Of a stretch of DNA of 48,912 bases, positions 2,816 through 43,104 are shown one piece after another. Position 1 is the stretch's first letter, and each line of letters begins with the position of its first letter. Below the pieces are notes generated by a model, which worked only from the letters and a program-made list of their open reading frames with translations, was not told where the DNA came from and made no database searches. The DNA lies in NCBI GenBank assembly GCA_964533425.1, contig CAZHJG010000002.1:1-48912 (forward strand), given 5' to 3'. Source of the stretch: an uncultured Candidatus Saccharibacteria bacterium (GTDB lineage Bacteria; Patescibacteriota; Saccharimonadia; Saccharimonadales; UBA4665). The position numbers and the translations under genes were made by a program.

Positions 2816-2847
2816 AATTGCAGGATTAACTTAAAACAAAAACAAAT

Positions 2848-3870: not shown

Positions 3871-3893
3871 AACGCATCCTATATACTGGTTAG

Positions 3894-4868: not shown

Positions 4869-4928
4869 GCGGCATTGTTCTCCCCTGTTAAATCTGCTAT
4901 AGTTTAAGGGGGAAAATAAGAAAGATTT

Positions 4929-26957: not shown

Positions 26958-27323
26958 TTAGCCCAAGGTTTTCTTAACGACTTCGGCCACCTGGCGCGGT
27001 GTCATATCGGCCTTCAAAATAACAGCGCTAACACCAAGCGATTTAACTTCGTCGGGAATTTCCTGCTCGCCCATATTCGTCAGGATGATAACCTTGATGT
27101 TCTTGCCCCAAGCCTGTTTGCGCAGCTCGGTCAGCATTTGATCACCGGTCATTTCTGGCATCATGAGATCGAGCAGGATGATGTCCGGCTTCATGTTCTC
27201 GCACAGCTCCAGCCCGAGTTTGCCATTTTCGGCCGTTTGGACCTCATAATTTTCGGCCTCGAACTTGAAACGATACATCTGGCTGATGGTCTGGTCGTCT
27301 TCTATGATGGCGATTTTGGGCAT
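26958..27323 (-). CDS. Stand-alone CheY-like receiver domain (response regulator without an output domain)
   Basis: I place the start at the Met at 27323, preceded by AAGGAG. Motifs: MPKIAIIEDD, IILLDLMMPEMTG, VIILTN, ILKAD. The listed upstream 63 codons overlap the divergent promoter region. Confidence 0.85.
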   Translation of the reverse strand: MPKIAIIEDDQTISQMYRFKFEAENYEVQTAENGKLGLELCENMKPDIILLDLMMPEMTGDQMLTELRKQAWGKNIKVIILTNMGEQEIPDEVKSLGVSAVILKADMTPRQVAEVVKKTLG

Positions 27324-30674: not shown

Positions 30675-30675
30675 C

Positions 30676-30975: not shown

Positions 30976-32430
30976 ATGCCTGAAGGTGTCAAAGAGGCCG
31001 AAGAAACGCTGGCTGCCAAGACCGCTAAATTACCCTTTCAGAAGCGTCGCCAGCTGGAACGTGACCTGGAGCACATCACCCAGGAAATGTACCGGCGCAA
31101 TCGTGAGCTGGCCGAGACTAACAAGACGCTGTCGCTGCTCAGAACAATCGATGCGATGGTGCTGGAATCGCATGCCTCGCTGAAGATGGTCTGCGAACAC
31201 ATCACCGAGGCTATTACCCAAGTTACTGATTATGCCTTTGTTGGTTTGTTGACGCGTTCTTCGGGTGGCCATGATAAATTGACGCTCAATGGCTGGAGCG
31301 GCAATTCCTGGCTGGGGAAGCCTGAAGCCTCCCTGGGGTTCAGCCGCCCGATTCACATTGAGCTGGAGCATCCCTGGTTCTCCGGGTTATTGGACACCAA
31401 GATAATTTCGCTGGAAGGTCTGTCTGAAGAAATGTTGGCTGATTTTCTGCGATGTCCGATAAGTGACATTAAGCGTATCAGACGCCAGGTGCCGTTGAAG
31501 TCACTGTACGTGATGAAGCTGCTGGCTCGCCGCCGCTTGGTGGGGATATTGGTGGTCGGATTTTTGAATCCGGCGGATCAGCTCAGCGCGTCCGACACCC
31601 AGCTCATGGATCGTTTATGCGATAGCATTGGAGTAGCGCTGGACAACAAATTGCTGTTTGAGGAAAATCAGTCTGTGCTGCGTCAGCTTCGGGAGTCCAA
31701 CGCCAAGTTGCGTGAGCTCGATGAAGCCAAGGATGACTTCATCAGCATGGCTTCGCACCAGTTGCGCACACCGTTGACCAGCGTAAAAGGCTACCTGAGC
31801 ATGATTCTGGAGGGTGATGTTGGTAAGATTACGCCCACGCAGCGGACCATGCTCAACCAGGCGTTTTTCAGTTCGCAGCGCATGGTGTATCTGATTGCCG
31901 ATCTCCTGAACGTGTCGCGTATCAAAACCGGAAAGTTCTTAATTGAACCATCGCCGGTTGATCTGTCGGCCGTGGTGGAAGAGGAAATCGGTCAACTACA
32001 GGAGATCGCCAAAACCCACTCTCTGAAATTAAAATACAAAAAACCAGCGAAATTCCCGGAGCTGATGCTCGACGAAACCAAAACGCTCCAAGTCATCATG
32101 AATTTTATCGACAACGCCATTTACTACACGCCGGGCGGCGGAACAATTACCGTTTCGTTGGAAGATAAGCCTTCGGTGGTTGAACTGCGAGTTACCGATG
32201 ACGGCATTGGTGTGCCGCGGAGCGAACAGGCGCATTTATTTACCAAGTTTTACCGCGCCGGTAATGCACGCAAAGCCCGCCCATACGGCACGGGACTCGG
32301 TCTGTTCATGGCAAAAAAGGTGATGGTAGCTCAAGGCGGCTCGCTTATTTTTGAAAGTAAAGAGAATAAGGGCAGCACCTTCGGCTTCGTCCTGAGCAAA
32401 ACCAAGTTGGCGGTTAAGCCTGCTGCGTAA
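30976..32430 (+). CDS. Soluble sensor histidine kinase (coiled coil + GAF-like + HisKA + HATPase_c)
   Basis: H box SMASHQLRTPLTSVKGYLSM, N box NFIDNAIYYTP, DDGIGV, GTGLGLFMAKKV. No TM segment. SD AAGGTGG. Confidence 0.9.
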   Translation: MPEGVKEAEETLAAKTAKLPFQKRRQLERDLEHITQEMYRRNRELAETNKTLSLLRTIDAMVLESHASLKMVCEHITEAITQVTDYAFVGLLTRSSGGHDKLTLNGWSGNSWLGKPEASLGFSRPIHIELEHPWFSGLLDTKIISLEGLSEEMLADFLRCPISDIKRIRRQVPLKSLYVMKLLARRRLVGILVVGFLNPADQLSASDTQLMDRLCDSIGVALDNKLLFEENQSVLRQLRESNAKLRELDEAKDDFISMASHQLRTPLTSVKGYLSMILEGDVGKITPTQRTMLNQAFFSSQRMVYLIADLLNVSRIKTGKFLIEPSPVDLSAVVEEEIGQLQEIAKTHSLKLKYKKPAKFPELMLDETKTLQVIMNFIDNAIYYTPGGGTITVSLEDKPSVVELRVTDDGIGVPRSEQAHLFTKFYRAGNARKARPYGTGLGLFMAKKVMVAQGGSLIFESKENKGSTFGFVLSKTKLAVKPAA

Positions 32431-32571
32431 GAAATTTCGCTGACGTCAAACGCTATATTGCGCCACTCTTAATAGTGAAAAGCAAAAACTCCCGACTGTG
32501 TGGTTATGACCCCTGTTACGACCGTGCGGTTCACTATACCAATTACTAACTATTCAGAGAGGCAGGTGGAG

Positions 32572-33528
32572 ATGAAACACTTTATAAATATTAAACGCTC
32601 GGTGCGCCGGGCTGTAATTGCTGCGACGGCTTTAGCAACCATTGCCGGCACGGCGATCATTGGCCTGGGAACCAGTTCCGCGATGACATTTAATAATGGC
32701 GGCGCCGGCTGTAGTGTTGAAGGGCTTATGCCGCTACGAAGCGCGTTTAACGTCAGCGGCAGCATTGCGACAACCATGGTACAGGTGGATGGTCCAGCCA
32801 GTTGCCGCGAAACTGTTACCTTATCTTCATGGAATGCGCCGCAAGGAAGTGCCAATTTACGACCGTTTCAAAACCAGCAATTCTTTACTAGCCGGACCTT
32901 TGTGTTAGGCCCAGGTCAGCACAGTCTTTCAGTGAGAGTTAATAATAGCTGTAGCTTCCAGGTTGATGTGCTGCTGGGTTCGAACCCCAGAAGCGCGGCC
33001 GGCGATGCTAACTTCAGCCCGGATCAGGTAATCGGCTTCTTGCTGGTGAGCGGCGCTGCTTGCCCAGCTCCTACACCTGCCCCGACTCCTCCGGCTCCTA
33101 CTCCGGCGCCAACTCCGCCAGCAACCACGACTACTACCAATAATGTCTGTAGCGGCAGCACTAGCAATACGTCAAACGGTGCAGCTTCCCAAGGCGGTAA
33201 TTGCAGCACCAATACTACAATCGTTCAGGCTCAGGCGACTCAGAACACCGGTGGCAGCGGTGGCAGCGGTGGCGGCTCGTCAAGCTCCAGCGCTACTAGC
33301 AGCGCTTCGGCTGGCCCGGCCTCAGCGACGGTAAGTGCTAGTGCTCCGGCTGCCACAGCGACCGAAACGGCCACCACCCCGGTAGCCACCACGACTGCTG
33401 CTCCAACCTCACTGGTTAATACCGGCCCTGGCAGCATAGCCGCCGTCGCCGCTATCTTCGGCCTAGTGACTGTAGCAGGTACGCTGTTGTATCACCACCT
33501 GCTCAAGCGACGCGTTGAAGCTTTGTAA
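32572..33528 (+). CDS. Surface protein with a PT-rich linker and a C-terminal LVNTG-type sorting signal
   Basis: I place the start at the Met at 32572 (MKHFINIKRSVRRAVIAATALATIAGTAIIGLGTSSA). The linker reads PAPTPAPTPPAPTPAPTPP. The C-terminus reads PTSLVNTGPGSIAAVAAIFGLVTVAGTLLYHHLLKRRVEAL. Confidence 0.8.
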   Translation: MKHFINIKRSVRRAVIAATALATIAGTAIIGLGTSSAMTFNNGGAGCSVEGLMPLRSAFNVSGSIATTMVQVDGPASCRETVTLSSWNAPQGSANLRPFQNQQFFTSRTFVLGPGQHSLSVRVNNSCSFQVDVLLGSNPRSAAGDANFSPDQVIGFLLVSGAACPAPTPAPTPPAPTPAPTPPATTTTTNNVCSGSTSNTSNGAASQGGNCSTNTTIVQAQATQNTGGSGGSGGGSSSSSATSSASAGPASATVSASAPAATATETATTPVATTTAAPTSLVNTGPGSIAAVAAIFGLVTVAGTLLYHHLLKRRVEAL

Positions 33529-33596: not shown

Positions 33597-33625
33597 TTGA
33601 CAAAATGCCAATTCCTTGCTAAAAT
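33597..33625 (+). promoter_or_regulatory. Promoter (AATTGACAAAA type) for the 770-aa gene
   Basis: TTGACA (33597-33602), a 17-nt spacer ending in TGC, then TAAAAT (33620-33625). Confidence 0.55.
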
Positions 33626-33650
33626 ATGTCCAAATTAAGTTTGGAAGGTT

Positions 33651-35963
33651 GTGGCATACAACACTATGAGCGAAAAGCTTGACGTAAACTTGGCATTTGA
33701 CTACGAAGAACGGCACAGGGTTGAAGAAGAAGCCCGGAAGGCAGCCGAAGCAGCCGCTGAAGCTGAGCGCCAAGCCGCTGAAGAGGCTGCAGAAGCAGAA
33801 CGTCTTGAAGCTGAGCGCCGCGCCGCTCAAAAGGAGTGGGAAAGCTACGATATTCGTCAAGGCGACTTTCGCCCAAAGGATGATAAGCGTCGTGGCAACT
33901 TGGTAGACGATCGTATTCGTGGCGTTAAAGTTGACCGCCACACCTATTTACAGAACCGTTTGACCGAGGCTGAATATCCAGACTCAGAAGTCTCATCTTA
34001 CGCTGACTATGACATTGCTAAGCTAGCCGACAAACTAAACTCCATGCAAGAAGGCATAGCCAAGTTACCAACAGAAGGCAAGATCAAGTCCGGCAATAAA
34101 GAAAGTGCTGAAGAATACCTGGCAACAGACATACGGGCGCTGGCTCAAGTTGATGCTAACGAAGCGCGACTAGCCCTCCAAACTAAGCTGAGTGAAATGA
34201 AAATTTCTGAGCTGGCGAAGCAAGTTGCTCAAGCCCGACACGAGAATAATGGTGCGTTGGCTGAAAACGCCACTAAAATACTGAACCAAAAAATACAGGA
34301 GCGCAATGAAACGTTTAAGAGTCAGCGTGATAGCGAGCATAACGAAACGCGTGCTAATAACCTTAAGCAGCAAGTGGAAAAACTTATCGCTAAAGAAGAA
34401 GCCCGTAAGGCAGCCGAAGCCGCCGCTGAAGCTGAGCGCCAAGCCGCTGAATCAGAAACCCTAAATGATAGCCAGTCAGATGCTGTACCAGATGCTCAGC
34501 TTTCCCTTGATCATGATATAGCTTCAGAGCCTCATGCCGAGCCAACTGCAGCTGACCCCGTAACGAAACCTGAGGCTTCGGACGACAGTCAACCGGATGC
34601 CGTGTCGAAGGAACAGCTTTCTTTTGATGATCTGCCTTTCATACCCGAAGAAGTTGAAGTCCTTACTGGAGTTGTCGTCGATGAACCTGTTGCTGAATCA
34701 GGCAAAGCAGAACCCAAGTCAGATGATGATCAAGCACGTTTCTTCGAAACAGCAGAGCCGGCAATTGACTCCGACGCCGAAGAGGAACCTGATGCTCCTA
34801 AGCTTGATAATGCTGACGCGGCGCAGGCCGAAGCTGAAAGCAAAACCGACCCTGAACAGATCTCATACAAAATTGACAGCCTTGATAAGCGACGCCGATT
34901 AGTGGAGCGATTTACTGCTGATCAGCACGGCGAATTGAGTGTTGATCTTAAAGACTTATGGCCTTTAGGTAAACGGGTGCGTGAAGTATTGCTGAAGACC
35001 GAAAACGGAGTGCTCTACGTCCGTGAGAACAGATTGTTTAATGTAACTCCAGGTCAGGAGAAATCATTGGCCTATGAGGAAAAGACCGGTGACTTCCCTA
35101 TTATTAATTTGACTAATTCTTGGGCAGTTGTTCCCGGTACCATATCCATTCCCCCTATTACAGAAATTCTCGTCAGTAAGACTGAGGTGCTGTCGAGCGA
35201 TTCTGTTCTCACTGAGGCTACTCCCCTCGACGATGAGGACCCCTTTAAATATCCTCGTGTGGTTGCCGCACAGATATTAAAGGATAAAGAAAAGGAAAAA
35301 AATAGTCGCAGACTAAAGATGAGGCAAGATAAGCCGAAGCCACCGACCGATGATCCATCAAAGCCTGCCGCCAAGCCGAACTGGGACACAATCAGTCAGG
35401 AAGCGGTCGACCAGTCTCGTCGTCAACGGAACGTTCGTAACGTCTGGAAGACTATCTCAGGCAAGGTTACAAACTTCAGCCCGCGCGAATTCTATGGCAA
35501 TAATGAAAAGGGCACCAAACGCGCTCTAACCACGGCCCTTGGCGGCCTGGCAACCGTTGCCGCCACGCTTGGTATCGTTGGACCCGAATCCTTTAATGGC
35601 ATGAAAAACTCCATGCGGCGGCCTGTGTTAACTCAACCTGATAGGAAGCAAACTTCCACGCACACTAACCACTCATCTGCCGCCAGCTCAGGTCTCAATA
35701 TAAGCATGTCCCGCAGTAGTCGTAAACCATATCAGACCATTCACGTTCGTAAATCCCATCGTGCTTCATACGACAATGCTGCTCAGACCGGGAGCAATCA
35801 CTCGACTGGCACAACTGTTCCAGGCAGTCATGACGGACTGAACATTACCATGTCACGTAGTAGCGTAACCCCTGGTGAGCATAAGCGTGTGGCTACCTCG
35901 ATGGTGGAACCAAATCAGATTCCGGAACACATTTTGCGCGAGCTGATCAAAAAGAGCGCGTAA
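33651..35963 (+). CDS. Large acidic coiled-coil protein with a C-terminal TM segment, hypothetical
   Basis: 770 aa. The start is ambiguous (GTG 33651 or ATG 33666). EEARKAAEAAAEAERQAAE occurs twice, encoded by 59-nt direct repeats at 33724-33782 and 34393-34451 (57/59 identical). Other duplicated pairs are DSQSDAV/DSQPDAV and GLNISMSRSS/GLNITMSRSS. One TM helix (ALTTALGGLATVAATLGIVG). Confidence 0.8.
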   Translation: MAYNTMSEKLDVNLAFDYEERHRVEEEARKAAEAAAEAERQAAEEAAEAERLEAERRAAQKEWESYDIRQGDFRPKDDKRRGNLVDDRIRGVKVDRHTYLQNRLTEAEYPDSEVSSYADYDIAKLADKLNSMQEGIAKLPTEGKIKSGNKESAEEYLATDIRALAQVDANEARLALQTKLSEMKISELAKQVAQARHENNGALAENATKILNQKIQERNETFKSQRDSEHNETRANNLKQQVEKLIAKEEARKAAEAAAEAERQAAESETLNDSQSDAVPDAQLSLDHDIASEPHAEPTAADPVTKPEASDDSQPDAVSKEQLSFDDLPFIPEEVEVLTGVVVDEPVAESGKAEPKSDDDQARFFETAEPAIDSDAEEEPDAPKLDNADAAQAEAESKTDPEQISYKIDSLDKRRRLVERFTADQHGELSVDLKDLWPLGKRVREVLLKTENGVLYVRENRLFNVTPGQEKSLAYEEKTGDFPIINLTNSWAVVPGTISIPPITEILVSKTEVLSSDSVLTEATPLDDEDPFKYPRVVAAQILKDKEKEKNSRRLKMRQDKPKPPTDDPSKPAAKPNWDTISQEAVDQSRRQRNVRNVWKTISGKVTNFSPREFYGNNEKGTKRALTTALGGLATVAATLGIVGPESFNGMKNSMRRPVLTQPDRKQTSTHTNHSSAASSGLNISMSRSSRKPYQTIHVRKSHRASYDNAAQTGSNHSTGTTVPGSHDGLNITMSRSSVTPGEHKRVATSMVEPNQIPEHILRELIKKSA

Positions 35964-35987
35964 ACTAAAATATATTCAAGACAGTAA

Positions 35988-36016
35988 TTGACAAAAGAAC
36001 AAGTTTGGTGTAATAT
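35988..36016 (+). promoter_or_regulatory. Promoter (AATTGACAAAA type) for the vWA-MoxR operon, near-leaderless
   Basis: TTGACA (35988-35993), a 17-nt spacer, TAATAT (36011-36016). The ATG at 36027 lies 10 nt after the -10 box. The TTG listed as the ORF start is the -35 box itself. Confidence 0.55.
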
Positions 36017-36026
36017 AAAGATAATT

Positions 36027-36983
36027 ATGTTACCTGAAGTTTCACCAGAATTTGTCTACGTTGCTGCCACGACGCTTGGTGTCTTAGCTGGCGCCGGCAT
36101 GGAACATCTTGCTGTTGAGCAAGCCGCACAGCAAGAAGAAGATCACTATTATCCTGCATTGCAGATTGCATTGCAGGAAGAAGCCGCGGAAACTCAGGCT
36201 AAAGAAGTTTCAAAAATTTCTCGCCGTCAGATGTTAGGACAATGGCTCAGCCGAAGCGCGATCCGCTCTGTTTTGCCTATTACCGTGGCTGTCGGGTTTG
36301 GGCTGGTGGCACATTCCTTTACTTCTACGGAGAAGCCACAAAAGAAAACGGCAATTGAGATTAGTGTTGACGATTCTGGCGCCACCCGTCCGGTTATTGG
36401 ACAAATACGGGAAGTAGTCGCTCAGTTTAATAATACTGACGCTGAAGCTATTGTTGGCAACACAGGTCAAGTTATCTCTATGTCATCTCGCAAGTTCGGT
36501 CCGTTTACCGAAACAACTGATGGCGCTCCTGCCGGAGAAGCTCCCTTAAGTCAGCAAGTCAGTCTGGCGCTCAACCGTGTTGCCGAAAGTAACACCAAAA
36601 ATGGCAAAGACGATGGCAGGATTGTTCTTGTTACTAATGGTAATCGCGTGGGTAGCATCAAGGCTCTGGCGGAGCAGGCAAAACTGCAACATACAGCTAT
36701 CTATCCAGTTAACGTGGAACGAAAAGGTACGCCACACAGTCTGATTGATCAACTGAAGCAGTTAGCCGATGAGACCGGCGGCCAGTTCAGAGATGCTAAT
36801 AGCCAGAACTTTGAGAGGGTGGCTAAAGACGTCAAAGCGACAACTGCGCCCGAGCAAGCCCCAACCCCGCAACCCGATCGCTGGCCGGAACGCTTCAGCG
36901 GCATTCTAGCCCTGTTCGGCGCTGGATTGGTTTATAAGAATCGTAAACGCATGCCTACGGGTAGGAATGCGAAAGGAGAATAA
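36027..36983 (+). CDS. Membrane-anchored protein with a degenerate vWA-like domain
   Basis: N-terminal TM (FVYVAATTLGVLAGAG), a second TM (VLPITVAVGFGLVAH) and a C-terminal TM (FSGILALFGAGLVY). A MIDAS-like but degenerate motif reads ISVDDSGAT. IVLVTNGN replaces the usual LLTDG. Ends 2 nt before the MoxR gene. Confidence 0.6.
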   Translation: MLPEVSPEFVYVAATTLGVLAGAGMEHLAVEQAAQQEEDHYYPALQIALQEEAAETQAKEVSKISRRQMLGQWLSRSAIRSVLPITVAVGFGLVAHSFTSTEKPQKKTAIEISVDDSGATRPVIGQIREVVAQFNNTDAEAIVGNTGQVISMSSRKFGPFTETTDGAPAGEAPLSQQVSLALNRVAESNTKNGKDDGRIVLVTNGNRVGSIKALAEQAKLQHTAIYPVNVERKGTPHSLIDQLKQLADETGGQFRDANSQNFERVAKDVKATTAPEQAPTPQPDRWPERFSGILALFGAGLVYKNRKRMPTGRNAKGE

Positions 36984-36985
36984 GT

Positions 36986-38005
36986 ATGGCAGTTATATAT
37001 GAAGCAGTTGAGCAAATGGCAAGCACTAACCAGGTTCTTGGCTACTATGAAGACGGTATGCGTGAGCTAGGTAAGCTCTTATATGGAGAGGAACACGCAA
37101 AACAGGCTATACTTATCGGTCCTGTCATTATGCGCGCAGCGTTACTTTCGGGCATTCCAGCCGGTGGTAAATCTACTTTGATGCAAAATGCTTGGAGGCT
37201 GTATGACGGGCTTGACGATGATAACGTTGCTCGAATTCCTGGCCAGCACGACTTACAGGCTACTCAGCTGGTAGGCGGTCAGATCGGTACTAAAAAAATA
37301 GTCGCCGGCCGCAGCGAGGAAAGTAAGGTTGTTGTGGAAGGTATGGTTAAAGAGAAGACTCAAGGTCTCGTTATTGAAGAAATGAACCGTACCAATCCAG
37401 AGGCCGTGAACTCACTTTTGCCCGTTCTGGAAGATCGGCGCCTGGAAACTACGGCTGGACACATCGAAGTGCCTGGTCTGATATATACGGTTGCCGCTAT
37501 GAACCCATCTGAATCTAAGCAGTCAACTTTTCCGATTTCTGATGCTATGGCCTCTCGTTTTACTTTAGGCGCTGTGCTTGGTGTAAAGGGTAATCGTGAG
37601 GAGCGCATCTATAAAGCTGGTAAAATTCGCGAACACAAGAAGAACCCGAACACTAAGCCGGAAAATATTCAGCCCGTCTACAAAGTATCGGCCTTATCGG
37701 GACTTCAAAACTATGTTCAGGAAACTCGGATTGGCGAAACAATGACCGGCAAAATTGATGAAATTACCGTTGATGCTAACGACGTGCTTGAGAGCCACGG
37801 TATCCATGAGACCGACAATCGTTTGTCCCTTCACCTCGAGGCTAATGCTAAAGCATTGGGTAGTTTCCGGAATGAAGAACACATTATTCGCGAAGAAGAT
37901 GTTGTAGACGCCATCTATCTAGCATTGGCGGGCCGCTTTGGGGCCAAGAAGCAGACCAATGGCATAAACTTGGATAGTTTGGCTTACGATATTGCAAAAT
38001 TCTAG
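36986..38005 (+). CDS. MoxR-like AAA+ ATPase
   Basis: Walker A GIPAGGKST, Walker B-like LVIEEMNR, SLLPVLEDRRLET, YTVAAMNPSE, SDAMASRF. The order and spacing match the MoxR/AAA_3 pattern. Confidence 0.8.
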   Translation: MAVIYEAVEQMASTNQVLGYYEDGMRELGKLLYGEEHAKQAILIGPVIMRAALLSGIPAGGKSTLMQNAWRLYDGLDDDNVARIPGQHDLQATQLVGGQIGTKKIVAGRSEESKVVVEGMVKEKTQGLVIEEMNRTNPEAVNSLLPVLEDRRLETTAGHIEVPGLIYTVAAMNPSESKQSTFPISDAMASRFTLGAVLGVKGNREERIYKAGKIREHKKNPNTKPENIQPVYKVSALSGLQNYVQETRIGETMTGKIDEITVDANDVLESHGIHETDNRLSLHLEANAKALGSFRNEEHIIREEDVVDAIYLALAGRFGAKKQTNGINLDSLAYDIAKF

Positions 38006-38028
38006 CTGAGTATAACAGGCAAATTCAA

Positions 38029-38877
38029 ATGTCACTTTTACCTGAAACAGAAAACGCGCTCTTAGAGTATGGCGCGAGCCAGGAGTACATGTTTGGTTTG
38101 CATGAAGCAAGCGAGCCACGAGCAGGTACGCACGGTAGAAATATCGGTGAAGTTGCTTATGACCCAGTCCGTCATAATCCCTTGGCGATAAATCCTCTTT
38201 CTATATGGGAGCAAGTTTTGGACGCACCTCACGTTAAGCTTAATATCCCAGAGCGCCCGTTAAACGCTAATATTGTTATTCATCAGCCTGCTTCAGAGGG
38301 TCGGGACAATATATACCATTATGGGGAGTATCGACGCTTGCTGGCCCGGCGGCTAGGGTTGGCTATTGCTGATGCCCTGCCGGGAATTACTGATAGAACT
38401 TGGACCTACGCAGTTGGTGAAGCAGCTGATGAAGTCACTGATTCGGATGTTGAAATAATTGTTAGTACCGGCGATGTTCATGAGGAAAGTGATCAAATTG
38501 CGGAAATTTGCAAAAGCGGACTAACTTTCGTCATTGGTGGTCACTTGGCACTTCCTTTACACGAGCAAGATAAAAGTAATTTTCCTTCTACCGTAGCCGT
38601 CAAAGCTAATGTGCCAGCAGACCGTGCAATCATTCCTAATGGTTTGGTGGTACGAAGTGGTGTGAAAATCGGTGAAGTGAACACCACTGTAACTGAGGAC
38701 GTAGCAGACAACAGCGCATTGTTAGAGCGTCAACATCAACGTGTTGTGAGTCGGTTGGAAGAAACGGGTATTTCAGTCGCTTCGATAGTGCTGGATCGTA
38801 GTACGGCGATCGGTTTTGATAGCGGGAAGGCTGATAGTGCTTTAGCTCGGGCTGTTCGCCAAGTCATTCCGAAATAG
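38029..38877 (+). CDS. Hypothetical protein in the DUF58 position of a MoxR operon
   Basis: 282 aa, cytoplasmic. GTHGRNIGEVAYDPVRHNPLAINP is only loosely reminiscent of the DUF58 G.H.S..G...F...R.Y motif. The call is based mainly on gene order. Confidence 0.5.
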   Translation: MSLLPETENALLEYGASQEYMFGLHEASEPRAGTHGRNIGEVAYDPVRHNPLAINPLSIWEQVLDAPHVKLNIPERPLNANIVIHQPASEGRDNIYHYGEYRRLLARRLGLAIADALPGITDRTWTYAVGEAADEVTDSDVEIIVSTGDVHEESDQIAEICKSGLTFVIGGHLALPLHEQDKSNFPSTVAVKANVPADRAIIPNGLVVRSGVKIGEVNTTVTEDVADNSALLERQHQRVVSRLEETGISVASIVLDRSTAIGFDSGKADSALARAVRQVIPK

Positions 38878-38917
38878 AGCAGCGCGTAAGCTTAAGCAAG
38901 TTTGTTATAGTATATAA

Positions 38918-38946
38918 TTGACAAAAAATGAAGAGAGTGATATACT
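38918..38946 (+). promoter_or_regulatory. Promoter (AATTGACAAAA type) for the Gly-rich / LVNTG gene pair
   Basis: TTGACA (38918-38923), a 17-nt spacer, TATACT (38941-38946). It leaves a leader of ~120 nt. Confidence 0.55.
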
Positions 38947-39005
38947 CAAAAAGATAAAACCATACAGAGGTCGAATACGAATCTCCGCATGAGTAAGAAG
39001 GTAAG

Positions 39006-39043
39006 AAAAGGCGAGGGTGGTAGTACCTCCGTCTTTTATTTTT
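39006..39043 (+). promoter_or_regulatory. Terminator-like hairpin plus T-tract inside the 5' leader of 39075 (possible attenuator)
   Basis: AAAAGGCGAGGG (39006-39017) pairs with CCTCCGTCTTTT (39026-39037) with one mismatch and wobbles. The loop is TGGTAGTA. TTTTATTTTT follows, about 30 nt before SD AGAGGAG and the ATG. Confidence 0.35.
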
Positions 39044-39074
39044 ACCAAGGTATTAAAGGAGTTAGAGGAGCAAT

Positions 39075-40544
39075 ATGTCAAAAGAAGGACAATCAACGCC
39101 AGTCATGGATGAACAGCTTCAGGCTGAAGCGCAGCAGCAGAGTCATGCCAGGCACCATTTGCTTTGGCGTCTCGCACCTTATGTAGCGGCTGGAGTCGCT
39201 GCAGCGGGCGCTGTTGAACTAGTTAATTTTAGTAATAGTGGCAGTCACAGTGTCGCAACTGCGGCTGGTGGCAACGTTCCAAATTTGGTAAACAGCCCGA
39301 ATCAGGCACTCGCTAACTGTGAAAATCTACACTTTGGCCAGTCAGCTGCAAACGCCTCAAACTACAATTCAGACGCCTTCTTCCCCAATACTACCGTAGC
39401 TACTCCTGAAGACGCTAAGCAGTACGTACTGAACCTGTTTAGCAAAGATGGCCCTCTGGCCGGGGATACTCAGATGGAATCTCTGGGTGCTGCAATGTCG
39501 ACCGTTGTTGAAGCCGCGCATCAGGGCGGTTTCGAAAATACAAATTATGACTATATTGATCACTTTAATAAGGCACTTGGCCGCTACAAAGGTAATGGTG
39601 GTCGTGACCGCGCAGTCAGCGACTGCAAGGAAGCCTTCAACACGTTGATCCAGGATGTTGGTTACAACGACAACTGGGCTAACTCCGGCGAAACTGTTAC
39701 CGAATTTGCCGCTGTACGCGATAAGCAAAGCAATGACGTCGCCGCCACCACCATGTTCCGCGGTATCGTCAAACAAGGCGTAACCTTGAAAGGTGTCGAA
39801 TTCAAACTCCGCACGACTTCCAAGGGCGAAAACGGCTACCTCAGTGTACTCATTTCCACGAATTCTGAAGGGGTTGAAAATGGCACCATCTTTATTAAAG
39901 GTCTAACGGTGCAGCAGTTCAACGGCAAGAGCCAAACCAATCACGGTAAGAACCCGGCCAAAAAACAGCACGAGCTTCACCAGGCTAACACTGGCTCACA
40001 AGTTGCCAGCGGTCTCGGCGGTGTTATTGTTCGGCGCAGCTCCAATGGGCAGCTCACGCTCAGCTCCGCTGGCGGCGGTTCCGGCGTAGGCGCTGGTACT
40101 GGCACCGGTCACGTGAAGGGTGGCGGTGGCGCTCTGCGCGGCCGTGGTGGCCAAGGCGTTAAAGGTGGTAGCGGTGGTGGTACCGGCTCTGGCTCAACCG
40201 AAGGTTCGCACGGTTCTACTTCCGGTAGCGGTGGCCAAGGTACTGGCGGTTCTGGTTCGGCTGGCGGTGGCGGTAACGCTGGCGGCGGCTCTGGTAACAA
40301 CGAAGGCAATAACGGCAGTGGTGCTGGAAGTAATGGCAATGGTGGCGGCAGCGGCGGTGGCGAAACCACTCCTAACACTGGAACCACACCTCCACCGGAA
40401 ACTAACACCACACCTCCACCGGAAACCAATACTACGCCTCCACCTGAGACTAATACGACACCCTCACCTCCGACCACAACCGGCAGCAAGGGCTCACCTC
40501 AACCAGTTCCATGTAATGCGGCAAACCCACAACCGGGTTGCTAG
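39075..40544 (+). CDS. N-terminally anchored secreted protein with Gly-rich and TTPPPETN-repeat C-terminal region
   Basis: 489 aa with SD AGAGGAG. TM helix LAPYVAAGVAAAGAVELV, a globular middle, GSG-rich low complexity and three TTPPPETN units. Ends PCNAANPQPGC. Confidence 0.8.
   Translation: MSKEGQSTPVMDEQLQAEAQQQSHARHHLLWRLAPYVAAGVAAAGAVELVNFSNSGSHSVATAAGGNVPNLVNSPNQALANCENLHFGQSAANASNYNSDAFFPNTTVATPEDAKQYVLNLFSKDGPLAGDTQMESLGAAMSTVVEAAHQGGFENTNYDYIDHFNKALGRYKGNGGRDRAVSDCKEAFNTLIQDVGYNDNWANSGETVTEFAAVRDKQSNDVAATTMFRGIVKQGVTLKGVEFKLRTTSKGENGYLSVLISTNSEGVENGTIFIKGLTVQQFNGKSQTNHGKNPAKKQHELHQANTGSQVASGLGGVIVRRSSNGQLTLSSAGGGSGVGAGTGTGHVKGGGGALRGRGGQGVKGGSGGGTGSGSTEGSHGSTSGSGGQGTGGSGSAGGGGNAGGGSGNNEGNNGSGAGSNGNGGGSGGGETTPNTGTTPPPETNTTPPPETNTTPPPETNTTPSPPTTTGSKGSPQPVPCNAANPQPGC
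40383..40454 (+). repeat. Three imperfect 24-nt in-frame tandem repeats (TTPPPETN)
   Basis: ACCACACCTCCACCGGAAACTAAC / ACCACACCTCCACCGGAAACCAAT / ACTACGCCTCCACCTGAGACTAAT. Confidence 0.9.
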
Positions 40545-40568
40545 AACTAAATGACTAAGGAGATAATC

Positions 40569-41747
40569 ATGAATAAGCAGAATATTTTCAAAAAAATATC
40601 GCTGACGTTTGCTTCAGTCGTGATGGGTTTGCTGATCAGCACCGCTACAGCACACGCTATCCCGTACACGGGTGACACTACGCAGGCCTCGCCTGTACCA
40701 GCGTTCAACGTCTTTACCGGCGACATCCCGGCTCCGGCTCCTCCCGGTGGCGAGCAGAACTTTTTCCAGGGCCGCGTACCGGTCAATGGCGATCTGAGCG
40801 ACGCCCACACCCAGTATGTTGACCCAGTCAGCACTACTTGTACTGACGGCGAAGTCATGCAGATGCGCGTCTACGTTCACAACGGCGCCAGCGCTGCTAA
40901 TAACGACAACGGCAATGGCCCGAGCGTGGCTCACGGCACTAAAGTTGCCGTTAACCTGAACAACGGTTCGGCTAAGACCGCTTTCAACCCATCAGCTACC
41001 ATCAGCGCCAGCAACGCTGCCAGCGTCAGCGATGGCTTGAGCATCAATTGTAATGGTCAAAAGGTTGAACTGCAGTACATCAAGGGCTCGGCCGAGCAGT
41101 ACACGCTGAGCAATGGCTTTGAGTCATTAAGCGACAGCGTTGTAACTAATGGCGCCTTGATTCACAGCGAAAAGGTCCCTGGTGATGTCTGGGGCTGCTG
41201 GCAGGAACGCGTCTACGTGCTCTTGGCCGTCAAGGTCGTCAAGCCAACGACGCCTCCACCGCCCGCGCAGTCGACTGCTACTTGTGATCTGTTTACGATC
41301 ACTGCCAGTGAAGATCGTAAAGTTACCGTGAATCACTTCAACTTCACCGCTGTTAACGCCAACTTCAAGAACGTCGTTGTTAACTGGGGTGACAACCACA
41401 GTGACACCTTCACCGACTCCAACAGTGTTGTCGGCCAGACGCATCAACTGCCTGGCTCGCCCGACACCTTTGATATCTCGGCGCTCGTCAGCTTTACTGC
41501 TAACGGCAAAACTTTAACCTCAGGTGGCCCTGGTACCGTTTGTTCTGAGCAGGTTTCGTTCACCCCGAACCAACCCCCGAACATCACGCCTCCACCGTCC
41601 ACGCCTCCAACCACGACTGTGGTAAGCACGCCTCCGAGCGAGCTGGTTAACACTGGTGCCGGTAGCGTCGTCGGCTTGTTTGCCGCCGCAACTGCTGGTG
41701 GTGCAGCCATCTACCGTCGCATACTTCGCCGCCGCTTCAACCAGTAA
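40569..41747 (+). CDS. Secreted surface protein with a C-terminal LVNTG-type sorting signal
   Basis: I place the start at the ATG at 40569, 7 nt after AAGGAG. Signal peptide MNKQNIFKKISLTFASVVMGLLISTATAHA. The C-terminus reads PPSELVNTGAGSVVGLFAAATAGGAAIYRRILRRRFNQ. Confidence 0.85.
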   Translation: MNKQNIFKKISLTFASVVMGLLISTATAHAIPYTGDTTQASPVPAFNVFTGDIPAPAPPGGEQNFFQGRVPVNGDLSDAHTQYVDPVSTTCTDGEVMQMRVYVHNGASAANNDNGNGPSVAHGTKVAVNLNNGSAKTAFNPSATISASNAASVSDGLSINCNGQKVELQYIKGSAEQYTLSNGFESLSDSVVTNGALIHSEKVPGDVWGCWQERVYVLLAVKVVKPTTPPPPAQSTATCDLFTITASEDRKVTVNHFNFTAVNANFKNVVVNWGDNHSDTFTDSNSVVGQTHQLPGSPDTFDISALVSFTANGKTLTSGGPGTVCSEQVSFTPNQPPNITPPPSTPPTTTVVSTPPSELVNTGAGSVVGLFAAATAGGAAIYRRILRRRFNQ

Positions 41748-41850
41748 GCTGTGGATAAGCACTAGCGCAAACTCGTATTTTGTGCTACGGTAAAGGTAAG
41801 TTTGAGAACAAGAGCACTGACTGACCGCTCTGGACACGAAAAATAGTGAT

Positions 41851-41880
41851 ATCCCCTCGATGCGAGCGAGGGGATTTTCA
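41851..41880 (+). terminator. Rho-independent terminator closing the 39075-41747 unit
   Basis: ATCCCCTCG-ATGCGAG-CGAGGGGAT followed by TTTTCA. Confidence 0.7.
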
Positions 41881-41992
41881 TGTGCAGGCTTCTCTTTTTA
41901 CCTCTGTTATGGTATGATATTCCGAGCCATTTCGCTAACGCAGGCAATTGCCAATGGTACATGGAAAATGGCTAATAGAAGCGTTAACGCGT

Positions 41993-42067
<75 letters not shown>

Positions 42068-42105
42068 AATATCAAGATTACATTCCTAGCGCCTACATTA
42101 TCCTT

Positions 42106-42516
42106 ATGATCAAACACCCTACCCTTGGCATCGAGTTCAACTTAATGGGTTATGTAGTTCCCGGCAGCTATAAAGATACTGACCCGAGTTATGCATACCT
42201 GGTTACAAAAGTATTAGACATCGCTTCCAACGAAGGATTCTGGCTAGCCGTTCCTGAAATTAAAGGTCTTGATGATAAACCTTTGTTCGATAGGATGGAC
42301 GAACTTGGCTACGGTGACCGTCGCGTCGCGCTAATGTATGATCATGAAGTTCCCGCCGTCCTTGGCATGTGCCGAATCGCTTTAGCGAACCTGCTGGACA
42401 AAAATCTTGACCCCGATGCATACGAGGAGAGCTATAGACACTTACCGTCCCCCGCAACCATGAAAATCCTTATCGGCTCGCTCGAAGAGTACGAACGTTT
42501 ACGGCGAGACGACTAG
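42106..42516 (+). CDS. Hypothetical protein
   Basis: This is the 136-aa remainder of the listed 41860 ORF after removing the part that overlaps tRNA-Glu. It starts MIKHPTLGIEF. No SD and no recognised motif. Confidence 0.4.
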   Translation: MIKHPTLGIEFNLMGYVVPGSYKDTDPSYAYLVTKVLDIASNEGFWLAVPEIKGLDDKPLFDRMDELGYGDRRVALMYDHEVPAVLGMCRIALANLLDKNLDPDAYEESYRHLPSPATMKILIGSLEEYERLRRDD

Positions 42517-42759
42517 ACCCCGCTGTTTACAGGTGTAGCCTCTAACGGCAGCACGCTTCTCAATAGGTCGTGCCACTGATTGAATTCCGATAAAATATGA
42601 TTCCAATTCGAAGTTAGGTAATTCACCAAGCGTATTTTATATAAGTGCGAAGCTAAATTTACAGCATTAAGAACATATCTTATCCGAAACTCCAAAATAT
42701 TTACTTGCAAAATAAAGGGGATATGGTTACTGTTGAGGTACTAAGTGGAGGCTCATCTG

Positions 42760-43104
42760 ATGACTGCCGGCAAAGCTTTCTTGTACCTCGTATACGGCGT
42801 GATTGTGGCTGGACTGGTGATTGCTATCATTGCTTCGTTTGGCAAATCAGCGCCGGCGCCGCAACAACCCCAATCGAACACCTCTTCCCAGCAACAAGCA
42901 AATAGTCAAAGTAAAGCAAAGACCACCCCCAATGCTGCGACTCCGGGCCAGTCAGCAACGCCTAAGCCGACCTCAACTCCTAGTAACACGCCAAGTCAGC
43001 TCAATAACACTGGGCCTGGCGATGTGGCAGGTCTCTTCATCCTGGTAAGTATCGTGGGGCTGTTTGGCTATCGCCGCTTTATTGTGAGAGGTTCCACCGC
43101 TTGA
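42760..43104 (+). CDS. Small Ser/Thr/Pro/Gln-rich surface protein with a C-terminal LNNTG-type sorting signal
   Basis: The ATG at 42760 lies 9 nt after GGAGG. N-terminal anchor FLYLVYGVIVAGLVIAIIASF. The C-terminus reads PSQLNNTGPGDVAGLFILVSIVGLFGYRRFIVRGSTA. Confidence 0.7.
   Translation: MTAGKAFLYLVYGVIVAGLVIAIIASFGKSAPAPQQPQSNTSSQQQANSQSKAKTTPNAATPGQSATPKPTSTPSNTPSQLNNTGPGDVAGLFILVSIVGLFGYRRFIVRGSTA

Follow-up and report, generated by a model that had tools for sequence, protein, structure and literature searches.

A vWA-MoxR-DUF58 gene trio accompanied by two surface-protein genes in Saccharibacteria

Introduction

The defining feature of MRP operons is a MoxR gene that adjoins DUF58 and vWA or transglutaminase genes (PMC12067865; PMC6803598), and the MoxR-DUF58-vWA combination is a known, poorly understood envelope trio. 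The roles reported for these operons, which include moxR1-Rv1480-Rv1481 of Mycobacterium tuberculosis and RL3499-3502 of Rhizobium leguminosarum, are envelope- or secretion-related. As cited in PMC5700661 and PMC12067865, M. tuberculosis MoxR1 is required for RipA export and the orthologous R. leguminosarum operon affects envelope integrity. The Bat (Bacteroides aerotolerance) operon and Borrelia bb0170-bb0176 combine MoxR and DUF58 with a TM-vWA-TM protein; experimental mapping of the BatA-like protein BB0173 gave three TM helices, with the vWA domain in the periplasm (PMC5700661). The Bifidobacterium PFNA cluster (pkb2-fn3-aaa-atp-duf58-tgm) encodes a kinase, an FN3 surface protein, MoxR, DUF58 and a transglutaminase (PMC6803598). 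In the actinobacterial Esr pathway, a surface β-propeller sensor acts through MoxR-vWA on a kinase and an FHA protein (PMC13622651).

Here we describe a locus in a 48,912-nt stretch (the window) of a Candidatus Saccharimonadales (Saccharibacteria, CPR) chromosome, where genes B to F very probably form a lineage-wide five-gene cassette of two transcription units. Genes B, C and D place the same three protein types side by side as the MRP operons, in the order vWA-MoxR-DUF58 instead of MoxR-DUF58-vWA. The cassette is therefore a variation on a known theme rather than a new kind of system. The undescribed envelope system proposed in a preliminary description of this DNA survives only as a combination: within the literature searched, the trio together with two dedicated surface proteins seems undescribed. 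On the best reading, the cassette is a form of the MRP/Bat-like MoxR-DUF58-vWA envelope module that is specific to Saccharibacteria and is coupled to a pair of surface proteins. It may have a bearing on the way in which episymbiont Saccharibacteria build or sense their cell surface.

Results and discussion

Conservation of the cassette

Six same-strand ORFs (A to F) are present in the window, as had been claimed (Table 1; in the ORF list, B spans 35988-36983). A gene-neighbourhood comparison recovered the full, colinear set B-C-D-E-F from 11 independent loci of Saccharibacteria (the window, L001, L002, L006, L007, L012, L016, L019, L020, L021 and L022), with the same order and short spacers in each of them. 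Six partial contigs agree with this order, and no counter-example to the linkage was seen. The cassette is intact despite changed flanks in L002 (RCC1, polysaccharide lyase), L016 (PKD proteins), L020 (resolvase, relaxase) and L022; the last locus is so diverged that HMMs no longer detect B-E, yet the five genes are together. The identity of D across the cassette loci drops to approximately 25-30%. The wider region (from THF dehydrogenase, Mur ligase and a response regulator to pyruvate kinase, PGK and TIM) is likewise syntenic in L001, L019 and L021, so that part of the adjacency reflects general synteny. The proposed co-occurrence of six genes holds for B-F but not for A, which is missing from most related loci: the conserved unit is five genes. 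Relatives with the MoxR-vWA pair but without its neighbours had been named as a sign of chance adjacency; the loci found favour the linkage of E and F and disfavour A as a core member.

Table 1. Features of the locus and its surroundings in window coordinates.
Feature	Position	Strand	Basis or description
Response regulator with a free-standing receiver domain (from MPKIAIIEDD, 121 aa)	26958..27323	-	Pfam Response_reg, E 3.7e-21
Histidine kinase (HisKA + HATPase_c)	30976..32430	+	Pfam; usually next to the cassette on its 5´ side
LVNTG-sorted low-complexity surface protein, 342-aa ORF	32500..33528	+	Probable start ATG 32572
Promoter pA	33597..33625	+	TTGACA-17-TAAAAT, TG-extended
A, 770-aa accessory protein	33651..35963	+	No family; ORF, repeat and motif analysis
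Promoter pB	35988..36016	+	TTGACA-17-TAATAT; overlaps the TTG called mechanically as the start of ORF B
B, membrane vWA protein, 318 aa	36027..36983	+	Alignment, Pfam VWA of orthologues, hydropathy
C, MoxR-type AAA+ ATPase, 339 aa	36986..38005	+	Scores exceed Pfam gathering for AAA_5 (40.5 bits) and AAA_3 (33.1 bits)
D, cytoplasmic divergent DUF58-family protein, 282 aa	38029..38877	+	Family-level PF01882 matches
Promoter pE	38918..38946	+	TTGACA-17-TATACT, extended -10, TGATATACT
Leader hairpin and U-run	about 39000..39050	+	Inside the E leader of ~122 nt; terminator- or attenuator-like
E, type-II membrane-anchored protein, 489 aa	39075..40544	+	Orthologous in all cassettes
F, secreted protein with an LVNTG sortase anchor, ORF of 398 aa (392 aa in the gene call)	40551..41747	+	Alignment, AF2
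Intrinsic-terminator-like hairpin closing the cluster	41851..41880	+	5´ of tRNA-Glu (41993-42067)

The vWA-MoxR-DUF58 trio

The TTG at 35988 is the -35 hexamer of pB itself, and in the orthologues of B the start falls where the window has ATG 36027, which gives a protein of 318 aa and suggests that the unit 1 mRNA is probably leaderless. B comprises an N-terminal hydrophobic segment, a TM, the vWA domain, a C-terminal TM and a basic tail that ends in KGE. Its earlier description as a triple-TM protein requires qualification: hydropathy gives one strong TM, while the N-terminal hydrophobic segment is weak and the C-terminal one is short. From hydropathy and the positive-inside rule alone, the vWA domain is predicted to face the outside of the cell between two TM segments. 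The vWA assignment stands at the family level. The window copy falls below the Pfam VWA threshold (E 0.022), whereas the orthologue in L017 passes it (33.2 bits against a gathering threshold of 23.8, E 7.8e-8) and a second orthologue reaches E 1.2e-4. The MIDAS is degenerate, as had been noted, and reads DDSGAT and TNG in the alignment.

C starts 2 nt past the stop of B, and its identification as a MoxR-like ATPase was confirmed by two Pfam models (Table 1). The invariant motifs are Walker A (GxPGxGKS), Walker B (EE), sensor-1 N173 and R191 (SRF), and the best solved relative in a PDB search is 2R44, matched over the full length with E 6.3e-14. Judged by its sequence, C is a cytoplasmic AAA+ ATPase of the MoxR-proper type that keeps the catalytic motifs. 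The family of D comprises 210 representative clusters; for 201, E is below 1e-10. The proposal that D occupies the DUF58 position is supported by the family, in which 25 of 140 members match PF01882 (best E 1.9e-6), but not by the window copy, which has no DUF58 match in Pfam. The AF2 model of D (pLDDT 93.4) has an alpha/beta fold, and a Foldseek search of the PDB returned no significant or function-specific fold match.

The surface proteins E and F

E has a conserved juxtamembrane domain of ~230 aa that contains a Cys pair, followed by a Gly-rich and TTPPPETN stalk and a C-terminal Cys-x(n)-Cys end. We regard it as highly probable that the juxtamembrane domain is globular and that the Gly/Thr-Pro stalk is long and disordered. 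The TTPPPETN repeat reported earlier is a 24-nt unit present in 3.3 copies (40383-40462). No family was found for E in Pfam, NCBIfam or PDB searches.

F is the best-conserved cassette gene. Its product carries a Sec signal, an N-terminal β-sandwich domain of ~200 aa, a PKD/Ig-like domain and the LVNTG anchor; the sorting signal was correctly recognized, with LVNTG followed by a hydrophobic stretch and a basic tail at the end. The matches to PKD_4 are weak, and Foldseek with the AF2 model (pLDDT 90.2) returned only generic Ig/FN3 tandems, with no specific functional match. Homologues of F form at least 152 clusters; counting source names more specific than 'bacterium', all taxon-naming records are Saccharibacteria or Patescibacteria, except for one 'Verrucomicrobiae bacterium' MAG. 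The N-domain of the window F is 69% identical to those of L001, L007 and L019 but 37% identical to that of L008; for C, D and E, the identity between L008 and the window is 72-76%. This conflict between the phylogeny of F and those of B-E means that F can be exchanged independently.

Promoters, leader and terminator

The 11-mer AATTGACAAAA has exactly three copies in the window (33595, 35986 and 38916), each of which forms the -35 of a sigma-70-like promoter with 17-nt spacing and a score of 10-11 of 12. With one mismatch allowed, 6 matches were found against 1.2 expected, a number reached in 0 of 100 shuffles. The three promoters lie where they had been reported. A pB orthologue is kept in L001, L007, L010, L012, L019, L020 and L021, with the ATG 7-10 nt past the -10 hexamer; all 11 loci that were compared (the window and ten others) carry pE in the spacer between D and E. 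In all likelihood, unit 1 (B-C-D) is transcribed from pB and unit 2 (E-F) from the strong pE, with its extended -10 and a structured leader. Since E and F have their own promoter, co-regulation of the two units may fail.

The leader of ~120 nt with a terminator-like hairpin was found as described (Table 1). The leader as a whole shows no significant excess of stability over shuffles (z between -1.5 and -1.6), and an Rfam search of it gave no family match. L008, the closest relative, has the hairpin and T-run too; in the other loci, the E leader contains a hairpin rich in G+C that lacks the U-run. The proposed closing terminator is a hairpin of 9 pairs, 6 of them G-C, at 41851-41875, followed by TTTTC.

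Comparison with described systems

The closest structure of C, 2R44, accords with the MRP type. In comparison with the MRP operons, all three trio proteins are highly divergent, the MIDAS of B is degenerate, the surface-protein genes E and F are always carried and a His kinase gene usually lies 5´. The MoxR, DUF58 and TM-vWA-TM proteins are shared with the Bat operon and Borrelia bb0170-bb0176, and the predicted layout of B (TM-vWA-TM, basic C-tail) resembles that of BB0173. However, B has no match to the BatA N-terminal domain and has lost the MIDAS that BB0173 keeps. The cassette has a single vWA protein instead of BatA and BatB, lacks the BatC (TPR), BatD and BatE/SH3 genes, and belongs to a monoderm-like CPR cell with sortase-anchored partners. 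PFNA likewise joins a kinase, an FN3/Ig-like β-sandwich surface protein, an MRP-type MoxR and DUF58 in a conserved, fast-evolving, lineage-specific cluster (PMC6803598; PMC12067865). It occurs in a different phylum with a different gene order and a Ser/Thr instead of a His kinase, its transglutaminase corresponds to the vWA membrane protein and E, and its FN3 protein resembles F at the domain-type level only. Ternary MoxR-vWA systems and threat sensing of the Esr type (Kaur et al. 2020; PMC13622651) share a MoxR-vWA pair, a cell-surface protein and a kinase with the cassette. The cassette lacks an Esr-type β-propeller sensor, FHA protein, Ser/Thr kinase-phosphatase pair and effector, and differs further in its DUF58 protein, a C below the bpMoxR threshold and the absence of a PADLOC match.

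Proposed function and alternatives

On an even balance of probability, the best explanation as a whole is an MRP/Bat-like module coupled to the E-F surface proteins. In line with proposals for other MRP/Bat-type modules, we suggest more tentatively, with somewhat less than even confidence, that the trio serves the E-F complex as a chaperone or assembly device driven by ATP. A hexamer of C, with D as adaptor, would act on cytoplasmic segments of B, and the outward vWA domain of B would be a metal-independent docking module for E and/or F. In this way, the trio would control the folding, placement or activity of the surface complex, and the neighbouring kinase may tune expression or activity. 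The maturation or insertion of surface proteins by the ATPase/vWA pair, as suggested in the preliminary description, may be one of several readings. Counted against the mechanism are the window copies of B and D below Pfam thresholds, the discordant F tree and the separate E-F promoter; the degenerate MIDAS of B also removes the usual vWA binding mode.

A less likely possibility, to which we give about half the weight of the whole MRP/Bat-like explanation, is surface-sensing signal transduction. E and F would work outside the cell as sensors or ligand binders, B would pass their state on through the membrane, and MoxR and DUF58 would form an ATP-dependent threshold or reset device that feeds the histidine kinase and stand-alone receivers, in parallel to PFNA and Esr. 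A kinase lies 5´ of the cassette in most loci (directly 5´ of B in L001, L006, L007, L010, L012, L014, L017, L019, L020 and L022), and the core of the window kinase is 56-70% identical to those in L001, L006, L014, L019, L020 and L022. In L021 and L016, no kinase adjoins the cassette. The response regulators nearby consist of a receiver alone, and their output must therefore pass through protein contacts: one to three single-domain regulators occur near the cassette in L001, L006, L017, L019, L020 and L021, and the window regulator, a context gene outside the cassette, has no output domain. Precedents are PFNA, where the kinase phosphorylates MoxR (PMC6803598), and Esr, which senses TM7 epibionts (PMC13622651), and F consists of Ig/FN3-like domains, as in receptor ectodomains. 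However, the precedents use a Ser/Thr kinase and an FHA protein rather than a His kinase, no FHA, phosphatase or effector gene was found at the cassette, and the kinase may simply regulate cassette transcription or belong to the syntenic block.

It is improbable that B-C-D is a general chaperone module of the MRP type, for stress or the envelope, and that E and F are unrelated surface proteins kept adjacent by conserved gene order in small Saccharibacteria genomes. The separate promoters, the disagreement of the F tree with those of B-E and the wider synteny in L001, L019 and L021 are consistent with such uncoupled neighbours; the five genes in every complete locus, including those whose flanks on either side are wholly different (L002, L016, L020 and L022), the persistence of the linkage in L022 and the constant presence of pE in the D-E spacer argue for coupling. 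A ternary MoxR-vWA system for NTP-dependent conflict or defence, a role proposed for such pairs (Kaur et al. 2020, as cited in PMC13622651 and PMC12067865) and mentioned in the preliminary description, is highly improbable and found no support; the weak match of C to PF20030 bpMoxR (19.5 bits, gathering 27) is set against PADLOC matches for 0 of the 6 proteins, no β-propeller, VMAP or effector domain, a fixed core-genome position instead of a variable island, and a DUF58 and a TM-vWA protein that indicate the MRP/Bat type.

Accessory genes upstream of the cassette

Protein A comprises a charged helical N-terminal part, a central globular region, a TM and a tail of 125 aa with two GLNI(S/T)MSRSS motifs. 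The 59-nt direct repeat reported earlier lies within the N-terminal part, in copies at 33724-33782 and 34393-34451 that are 97% identical. Two other descriptions of A need correction: the protein is only mildly acidic (pI 5.2; D+E 17.9% against K+R 14.2%), and hydropathy places its TM at residues 625-644 with ~125 residues beyond it, so the TM is not C-terminal. In agreement with the earlier view that A has no recognizable family, Pfam, NCBIfam and PADLOC searches gave no match. The sole relative found is a 767-aa protein at the same position in L002/L003, which is colinear (22% identity, E 0.017), shares the TM and C-terminal motifs and, in L002, follows a pA-like promoter. A is missing from the loci outside the window and the L002/L003 lineage; it is a lineage-specific accessory of the window and this one other lineage. 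The 342-aa LVNTG protein between the kinase and A is, with high confidence, also an accessory or insert specific to the lineage of the window; its similarity to surface proteins in L002 is confined to the C-terminal anchor region.

Organization and linkage of the cassette

Genes B to F form a cassette that encodes a membrane vWA protein (B), a MoxR ATPase (C), a DUF58-like protein (D) and two surface proteins (E and F). Together with gene A, they account for the six same-strand ORFs that the preliminary description had placed at 33597-41880, all of which appear in the ORF listing.

Positions of the six ORFs in the window
ORF	Position	Strand	Feature
A	33651-35963	+	770-aa ORF
B	35988-36983 as ORF; start corrected to ATG 36027	+	318 aa after correction
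C	36986-38005	+	ORF, MoxR-type AAA+ ATPase
D	38029-38877	+	ORF, DUF58-like
E	39075-40544	+	ORF, type-II anchored
F	40551-41747	+	ORF, LVNTG sorting signal

Gene neighbourhoods around homologues of C, D or F were compared in every contig that could be reached, with orthology assigned by BLAST or HMM; pattern scans of genomes and metagenomes gave few loci (3 and 2, respectively). Eleven independent loci have the complete cassette in colinear order, namely the window and the related Saccharibacteria loci L001, L002, L006, L007, L012, L016, L019, L020, L021 and L022. L003 repeats L002, and L013 is the same contig as L007. Six contigs that end within the cassette (L008, L010, L014, L015, L017 and L018) agree with this order. 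At none of the loci examined does either part of the cassette, the B-C-D trio or E-F, occur without the other. The co-occurrence of all six genes, put forward at the outset as a point to check, therefore holds for B to F, which are intact in the 11 loci, and fails for A, which is missing from most of them.

The identity of D falls to 25–30% across these loci, and the flanking genes vary. RCC1 and polysaccharide lyase genes flank the cassette in L002, PKD-repeat proteins lie on both sides in L016, resolvase and relaxase genes are found in L020, and different neighbours occupy both sides in L022. These differences argue against mere inherited synteny. The window and L001 (a 326-kb contig) are syntenic upstream over genes for THF dehydrogenase, a Mur ligase, a receiver protein, EamA, ornithine decarboxylase, a membrane protein, a small protein and a histidine kinase, and downstream of the cassette over pyruvate kinase, PGK and TIM. 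In L020 (15177-17978), the cassette and an extra PKD protein are followed at once by genes for a serine recombinase of the resolvase kind and for a relaxase-like protein, and this copy may sit at the edge of a mobile element.

A deeply diverged copy was observed at L022:5541-9973, on an 804-kb Saccharibacteria contig, as four genes upstream of an F orthologue that is 53% identical to F. These B to E genes lie below the reach of the HMMs built here, yet their sizes, order and motifs are kept, including the Walker A motif, SRF, the DUF58 SDF motif, the TM-vWA-TM arrangement and a Gly-rich and Thr/Pro-rich stalk that ends in repeats. Because such copies are too diverged for the HMMs, the family counts probably understate how widespread the cassette is.

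Related loci in the species-genome collection are labelled Candidatus Saccharimonadales or Saccharibacteria. F homologues with a taxon below 'bacterium' are likewise assigned to Saccharimonadales, Saccharimonadia, Saccharibacteria or Patescibacteria, with the exception of one 'Verrucomicrobiae bacterium' MAG. MAGs with that Verrucomicrobiae-type label also carry close C homologues and locus L013.

The MoxR ATPase

C passes the Pfam gathering thresholds of both AAA_5 (40.5 bits; gathering 22) and AAA_3 (33.1 bits; gathering 27). The Walker A residues Gly56, Pro58, Gly61, Lys62 and Ser63 are invariant across 10 homologues, as are the sensor-1 residue Asn173 and the Arg finger Arg191 in the SRF motif. 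The acidic pair of the Walker B motif is EE rather than DE, and in the same homologues Glu131 is nearly invariant and Glu132 invariant. The nearest solved structure, 2R44, which the profile matches along its full length (residues 19-337, E 6.3e-14), was deposited as 'Uncharacterized protein', and we take it to be a MoxR-proper (MRP) structure from Cytophaga. By family matches and preserved ATPase motifs, C is classed as a MoxR-type AAA+ ATPase, as had been recognized at the outset.

The membrane vWA protein

The stop codon of B and the start of C are separated by 2 nt. In B, an N-terminal hydrophobic segment and a TM precede the vWA domain, which is followed by a short TM and a strongly basic tail that ends in KGE. 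The earlier reading of a triple-TM protein needs correction, as only one of the three hydrophobic segments is a strong TM by hydropathy. Hydropathy and the basic C-terminal tail fit a predicted TM-vWA-TM topology with the vWA domain outside, and the positive-inside rule would place this domain outside the cell. Experiments have demonstrated the same topology for BB0173, a BatA-like protein from Borrelia (PMC5700661).

The window copy of B scores 15.4 bits against Pfam VWA (PF00092), under the threshold of 23.8, and orthologues score 33.2 bits in L017 (E 7.8e-8, above 23.8) and 22.7 bits in L021 (E 1.2e-4). Searched against PDB sequences, the B profile returns only vWA matches, at E ~0.8. B is thus assigned as a vWA protein that becomes visible at the family level only. 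A functional MIDAS (DxSxS...T...D) is absent from the window copy, which reads DDSGA-T and TNG. The degeneration noticed earlier in this copy extends to nearly all orthologues, in which DxSG(A/x)T replaces DxSxS and TNG or TYG replaces TDG; the sites include DRSGAT, DHSFMT and DRAGSI, as well as TYG, TNG and ADG, and TDG is kept only in L017.

The divergent DUF58-like protein

D starts 23 nt 3´ of C. The window copy has no Pfam match of its own, PF01882 (DUF58) included, and a DUF7234 match was discarded as noise. An exhaustive HMMER search collected 210 representative clusters of the D family, of which 201 lie below E 1e-10 and all are ~270–295 aa in length; the word-indexed protein search under-reported the families, with 10 for C and 5 for D. 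Among 140 members of the D family, 25 match PF01882 (best E 1.9e-6). The preliminary placement of D at a DUF58 position is thus supported for the family, and the window copy itself shows no match. An AlphaFold2 model on the family alignment has an alpha/beta fold (pLDDT 93.4), for which Foldseek against the PDB returned generic Rossmann-like matches only, none under E 1e-3, and the D profile matched nothing among PDB sequences. The DUF58 membership of the D family accordingly derives from sequence. An hhalign comparison of the D and B families, made to see if DUF58 could be a cryptic form of vWA, gave no significant result. Residues 164-172 of window D read GLTFVIGGH against the family consensus GLTFVISDF, and the closest relative reads VVSGF; the window sub-lineage is read as having lost Ser-Asp from the motif that is most conserved in the family.

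The surface proteins

E is a type-II anchored protein with a conserved domain of ~230 residues, a Gly-rich and Thr/Pro-rich stalk and a C-terminal Cys pair. The anchor and the TTPPPETN repeat (a 24-nt unit present 3.3 times) are both as first described. The domain itself has no match in Pfam, NCBIfam or the PDB. Its conserved Cys82 and Cys184 (window numbering) are both absent from the L020 orthologue (L020:11007-12656), and this joint loss points to a disulfide with a structural role and away from a catalytic Cys.

F consists of a signal peptide, a conserved N-domain (~200 residues, three of them invariant Cys), a PKD-like domain, a Pro/Thr linker and LVNTG. The second domain gives weak Pfam PKD matches, and precomputed PKD matches exist in many homologues. 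The C-terminus reads LVNTG-AGSVVGLFAAATAGGAAIY-RRILRRRFNQ, and an N-terminal hydrophobic signal is present. With the motif, the hydrophobic segment, the basic tail and the N-terminal signal all in place, F has the features of an LPXTG-type sorting signal and is a predicted sortase substrate, which agrees with the initial designation as an LVNTG-sorted protein. The sorting motif L(V/P)(N/S)TG is kept in 7/7 orthologues. The F model (pLDDT 90.2) shows two beta-sandwich domains, for which Foldseek against the PDB and BFVD found generic Ig/FN3 tandems only.

F is the best-conserved gene of the cassette and has two N-domain types, which contain either HAIPYTGD... or SCYQYNANGF...NNICG with an extra Cys pair. 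The N-domain of window F (40551-41747) is 69% identical to those of L001 (13349-14521), L007 and L019 (12199-13350) and 37% identical to that of L008 (4166-5335), although C, D and E of L008 are 72–76% identical to those of the window. This contradiction suggests that F alleles are exchanged between lineages, independently of B to E.

A sortase gene lies near the L019 cassette, together with TatA and TatC, 2–3 kb downstream. In the window, two more small low-complexity LVNTG/LNNTG proteins flank the cluster (32500-33528 and 42745-43104), so that sortase substrates are dense in this region. A pilus-assembly reading was dropped, as the cassette has neither a pilin motif nor a dedicated sortase.

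The accessory protein A

A has the expected 770 aa. It had been characterized as acidic with a C-terminal TM, and proves to be only mildly acidic (pI 5.2), with the TM at 625-644 preceding a 125-aa tail. The internal 59-nt repeats are two copies at 33724-33782 and 34393-34451 with 97% identity. No family in Pfam, NCBIfam or PADLOC matches A, and an NCBIfam XopAH match is noise (18 bits against a cutoff of 220). Among the loci examined, A is confined to the window and L002/L003, where it occupies the same position, and is therefore best regarded as an accessory rather than a core member. The two counterparts show weak colinear similarity (E 0.017), with the TM and C-terminal motifs common to both. 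In L002, A lies just 18 nt from B and pB, the promoter ahead of B, is missing; A and B are thus probably co-transcribed there.

Promoters, leaders and terminator

The 48.9-kb window contains three exact copies of the element AATTGACAAAA, which lie at 33595, 35986 and 38916. If one mismatch is tolerated, six matches are found against 1.2 expected, and 0/100 shuffles reached six. Every copy is the -35 element of a 17-nt-spaced promoter that matches 10–11 of the 12 consensus positions, which accords with the shared promoter reported earlier ahead of three units (pA, pB and pE, ahead of A, B and E). The terminator noted at 41851 was also recovered: a 9-bp stem with six G-C pairs, followed by a T-run, spans 41851-41875, ~100 nt 3´ of F and just ahead of tRNA-Glu (41993-42067).

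The TTG taken as the 'start' of B is in fact part of pB, as its -35 hexamer, and the orthologues begin at the position of ATG 36027, hence the corrected length of B. This ATG follows the -10 hexamer by 7–10 nt across loci (~10 nt in the window, 35988-36030; L001:9030-9086; L007, L010, L012, L019 and L020), a distance that implies a leaderless or nearly leaderless B mRNA. In most loci, pB lies within a strongly conserved block, CCATAAAAGGTAATTGACAAAA, which outside the window is directly 3´ of the kinase stop codon. Within the promoter spacer of this block, TACAT-N5-ATGTA forms an inverted repeat and a possible operator. The CCATAAAAGG part of the conserved block is missing from the window.

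The spacer between D and E contains a near-consensus promoter in all 11 loci examined, mostly with a TG-extended -10 element (TTGACA-17-TGATATACT or a variant), followed by a structured leader of 58–137 nt. In the window, the leader is ~122 nt long and comprises a hairpin and then UUUUAUUUUU, much as the ~120-nt leader with a terminator-like hairpin had been described. The leaders start with an A-rich, (C/G)ATAAAA(A)GG-like stretch (window 38953-39075; L001, L002, L007, L008, L012, L017 and L019-L021), and every one compared contains a G+C-rich hairpin, which is followed by a U-run only in the window and L008. Their sequence is not conserved, and an Rfam search of the E leader matched no family. 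No riboswitch or attenuator is claimed, because the stability relative to shuffled sequences is modest and variable (z -0.1 to -3.4).

The histidine kinase neighbourhood

A histidine kinase gene lies directly upstream of B in 10 loci. Extra genes separate the two in the window and L002, and the kinase does not adjoin the cassette in L021 and L016. One to three receiver-only response regulators are encoded near the cassette. The window kinase contains HisKA/HATPase_c domains. In most other loci, the upstream kinase has a fused HisKA_7TM sensor and 715–752 aa; in the window (29841-30954 and 30976-32430) and L001, a kinase of 484–498 aa follows a 277-aa multi-TM protein and a 98-aa protein. By BLAST, neither of these proteins resembles the 7TM domain that the kinase carries elsewhere, and a 'split kinase' is at most a possibility here.

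Comparison with known systems

In the MRP arrangement, the MoxR gene stands beside a DUF58 gene and a gene for a membrane vWA protein or a transglutaminase (PMC12067865; PMC6803598). The cassette is alike in that the DUF58 gene (D) and the vWA membrane protein gene (B) adjoin the MoxR gene (C), and by sequence its gene content is that which defines an MRP/Bat-type module. The roles reported for MRP-type operons concern mainly the envelope, as with the export of RipA in M. tuberculosis, the integrity of the envelope in Rhizobium and the Bat loci of Bacteroides and spirochaetes (PMC12067865, PMC5700661).

Identity with three particular systems was rejected. The Bat operon has BatB, BatC (TPR), BatD and BatE, whereas no cassette or flank encodes such domains and B has no Pfam match to the BatA N-terminal domain (PF07584). 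The PFNA cluster shares MoxR and DUF58 with the cassette, but contains the Ser/Thr kinase Pkb2 and a transglutaminase, in contrast to the neighbouring His kinase and the lack of a transglutaminase here. No cassette protein has a Pfam match to FN3 or transglutaminase, and F would resemble the FN3 protein of PFNA (Ig/FN3-like) by its modelled structure only. The MoxR-vWA-beta-propeller ternary systems comprise bpMoxR, a VMAP/propeller partner and an effector, whereas the cassette has neither a propeller nor an effector, C scores 19.5 bits against PF20030 (bpMoxR; threshold 27) and PADLOC finds no match among the six proteins.

Compared with these systems, the cassette appears new in having two dedicated surface proteins fixed to the trio, one of them without a known family, and in its vWA-MoxR-DUF58 gene order, general MIDAS loss, His-kinase neighbourhood and Saccharibacteria-only range. 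In the full-text literature, no paper was found that describes a MoxR or vWA module belonging to Saccharibacteria themselves, and the main text of the Saccharibacteria Tn-seq paper makes no mention of such a module (PMC10633639). As far as the searched literature reaches, the term 'undescribed' thus stands for the whole, and the trio itself is the known MRP arrangement.

Possible functions of the cassette

MoxR-DUF58-vWA operons are widespread, and for most of them the client is still to be found. A trio fixed to two specific surface proteins class-wide provides an unusually clear candidate client pair. What the data establish is the parts list, the gene order, the conservation of the genes as a unit and of two promoters, and the presence of intact ATPase motifs, and we place high confidence in the identity and linkage of the parts; the contacts and function of the cassette are all matters that we infer. 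In the proposed mechanism, a MoxR hexamer (C) with a DUF58 adaptor (D) would act on the cytoplasmic N-segment and the conserved basic tail of B, and the outward, MIDAS-less vWA domain of B would dock E and/or F. The putative outcome is that the trio assembles, positions or activates an E-F surface complex. We put this mechanism forward tentatively.

The main rival, which we judge rather unlikely, is signalling, in which E and F would sense, B-C-D would transduce, and the kinase and receiver-only regulators would belong to the pathway. It has precedents in PFNA, which combines a kinase, an FN3 surface protein, MoxR and DUF58 (PMC6803598), and in the actinobacterial Esr pathway, which senses TM7 epibionts via MoxR-vWA (PMC13622651). 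It is improbable that B-C-D and E-F are adjacent with no functional link, as their separate promoters and the swapping of F independently of B to E (69% vs 37% N-domain identity) might suggest. A defence system, in line with the link to conflict systems raised at the outset, is very unlikely, since PADLOC matches, an effector and a propeller are all absent.

Saccharibacteria are ultrasmall episymbionts that rely on contact between their surface and their actinobacterial hosts, yet few of the proteins on that surface are annotated. The cassette is a conserved kinase-adjacent surface module of these bacteria and includes one of their best-conserved wall-anchored proteins. A bolder proposal, which we regard as speculative and distinctly improbable, extends the action of the trio on E-F to a Saccharibacteria-wide host-contact apparatus. 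F, the most conserved protein, with at least two exchangeable N-domain types, would touch the host cell as a ligand or receptor anchored in the wall, partnered by E as a stalk tethered to the membrane. Placed under the 7TM histidine kinase and the receiver-only regulators, the trio would be an ATP-driven, integrin-like inside-out/outside-in switch that arms or reads contact. If true, this would mirror the Esr MoxR-vWA pathway by which actinobacterial hosts sense these epibionts. If the cassette occurs in cultivable strains, its role is directly testable with existing natural competence and Tn-seq (PMC10633639).

Other genes in the window

A 218-aa ORF (41860-42516) overlaps tRNA-Glu(UUC) (41993-42067) on the same strand; the 5´ part of this ORF is therefore probably not coding. 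At 498-9407, five same-strand genes encode proteins of 363, 339, 340, 324 and 1492 aa. These proteins match no Pfam family, apart from a near-threshold match of the 324-aa protein to PF06030, the WxL-interacting peptidoglycan-binding domain (25 bits vs 27.3). The five genes may constitute a WxL-type cell-surface complex cluster, which, if true, would be unusual outside Firmicutes.
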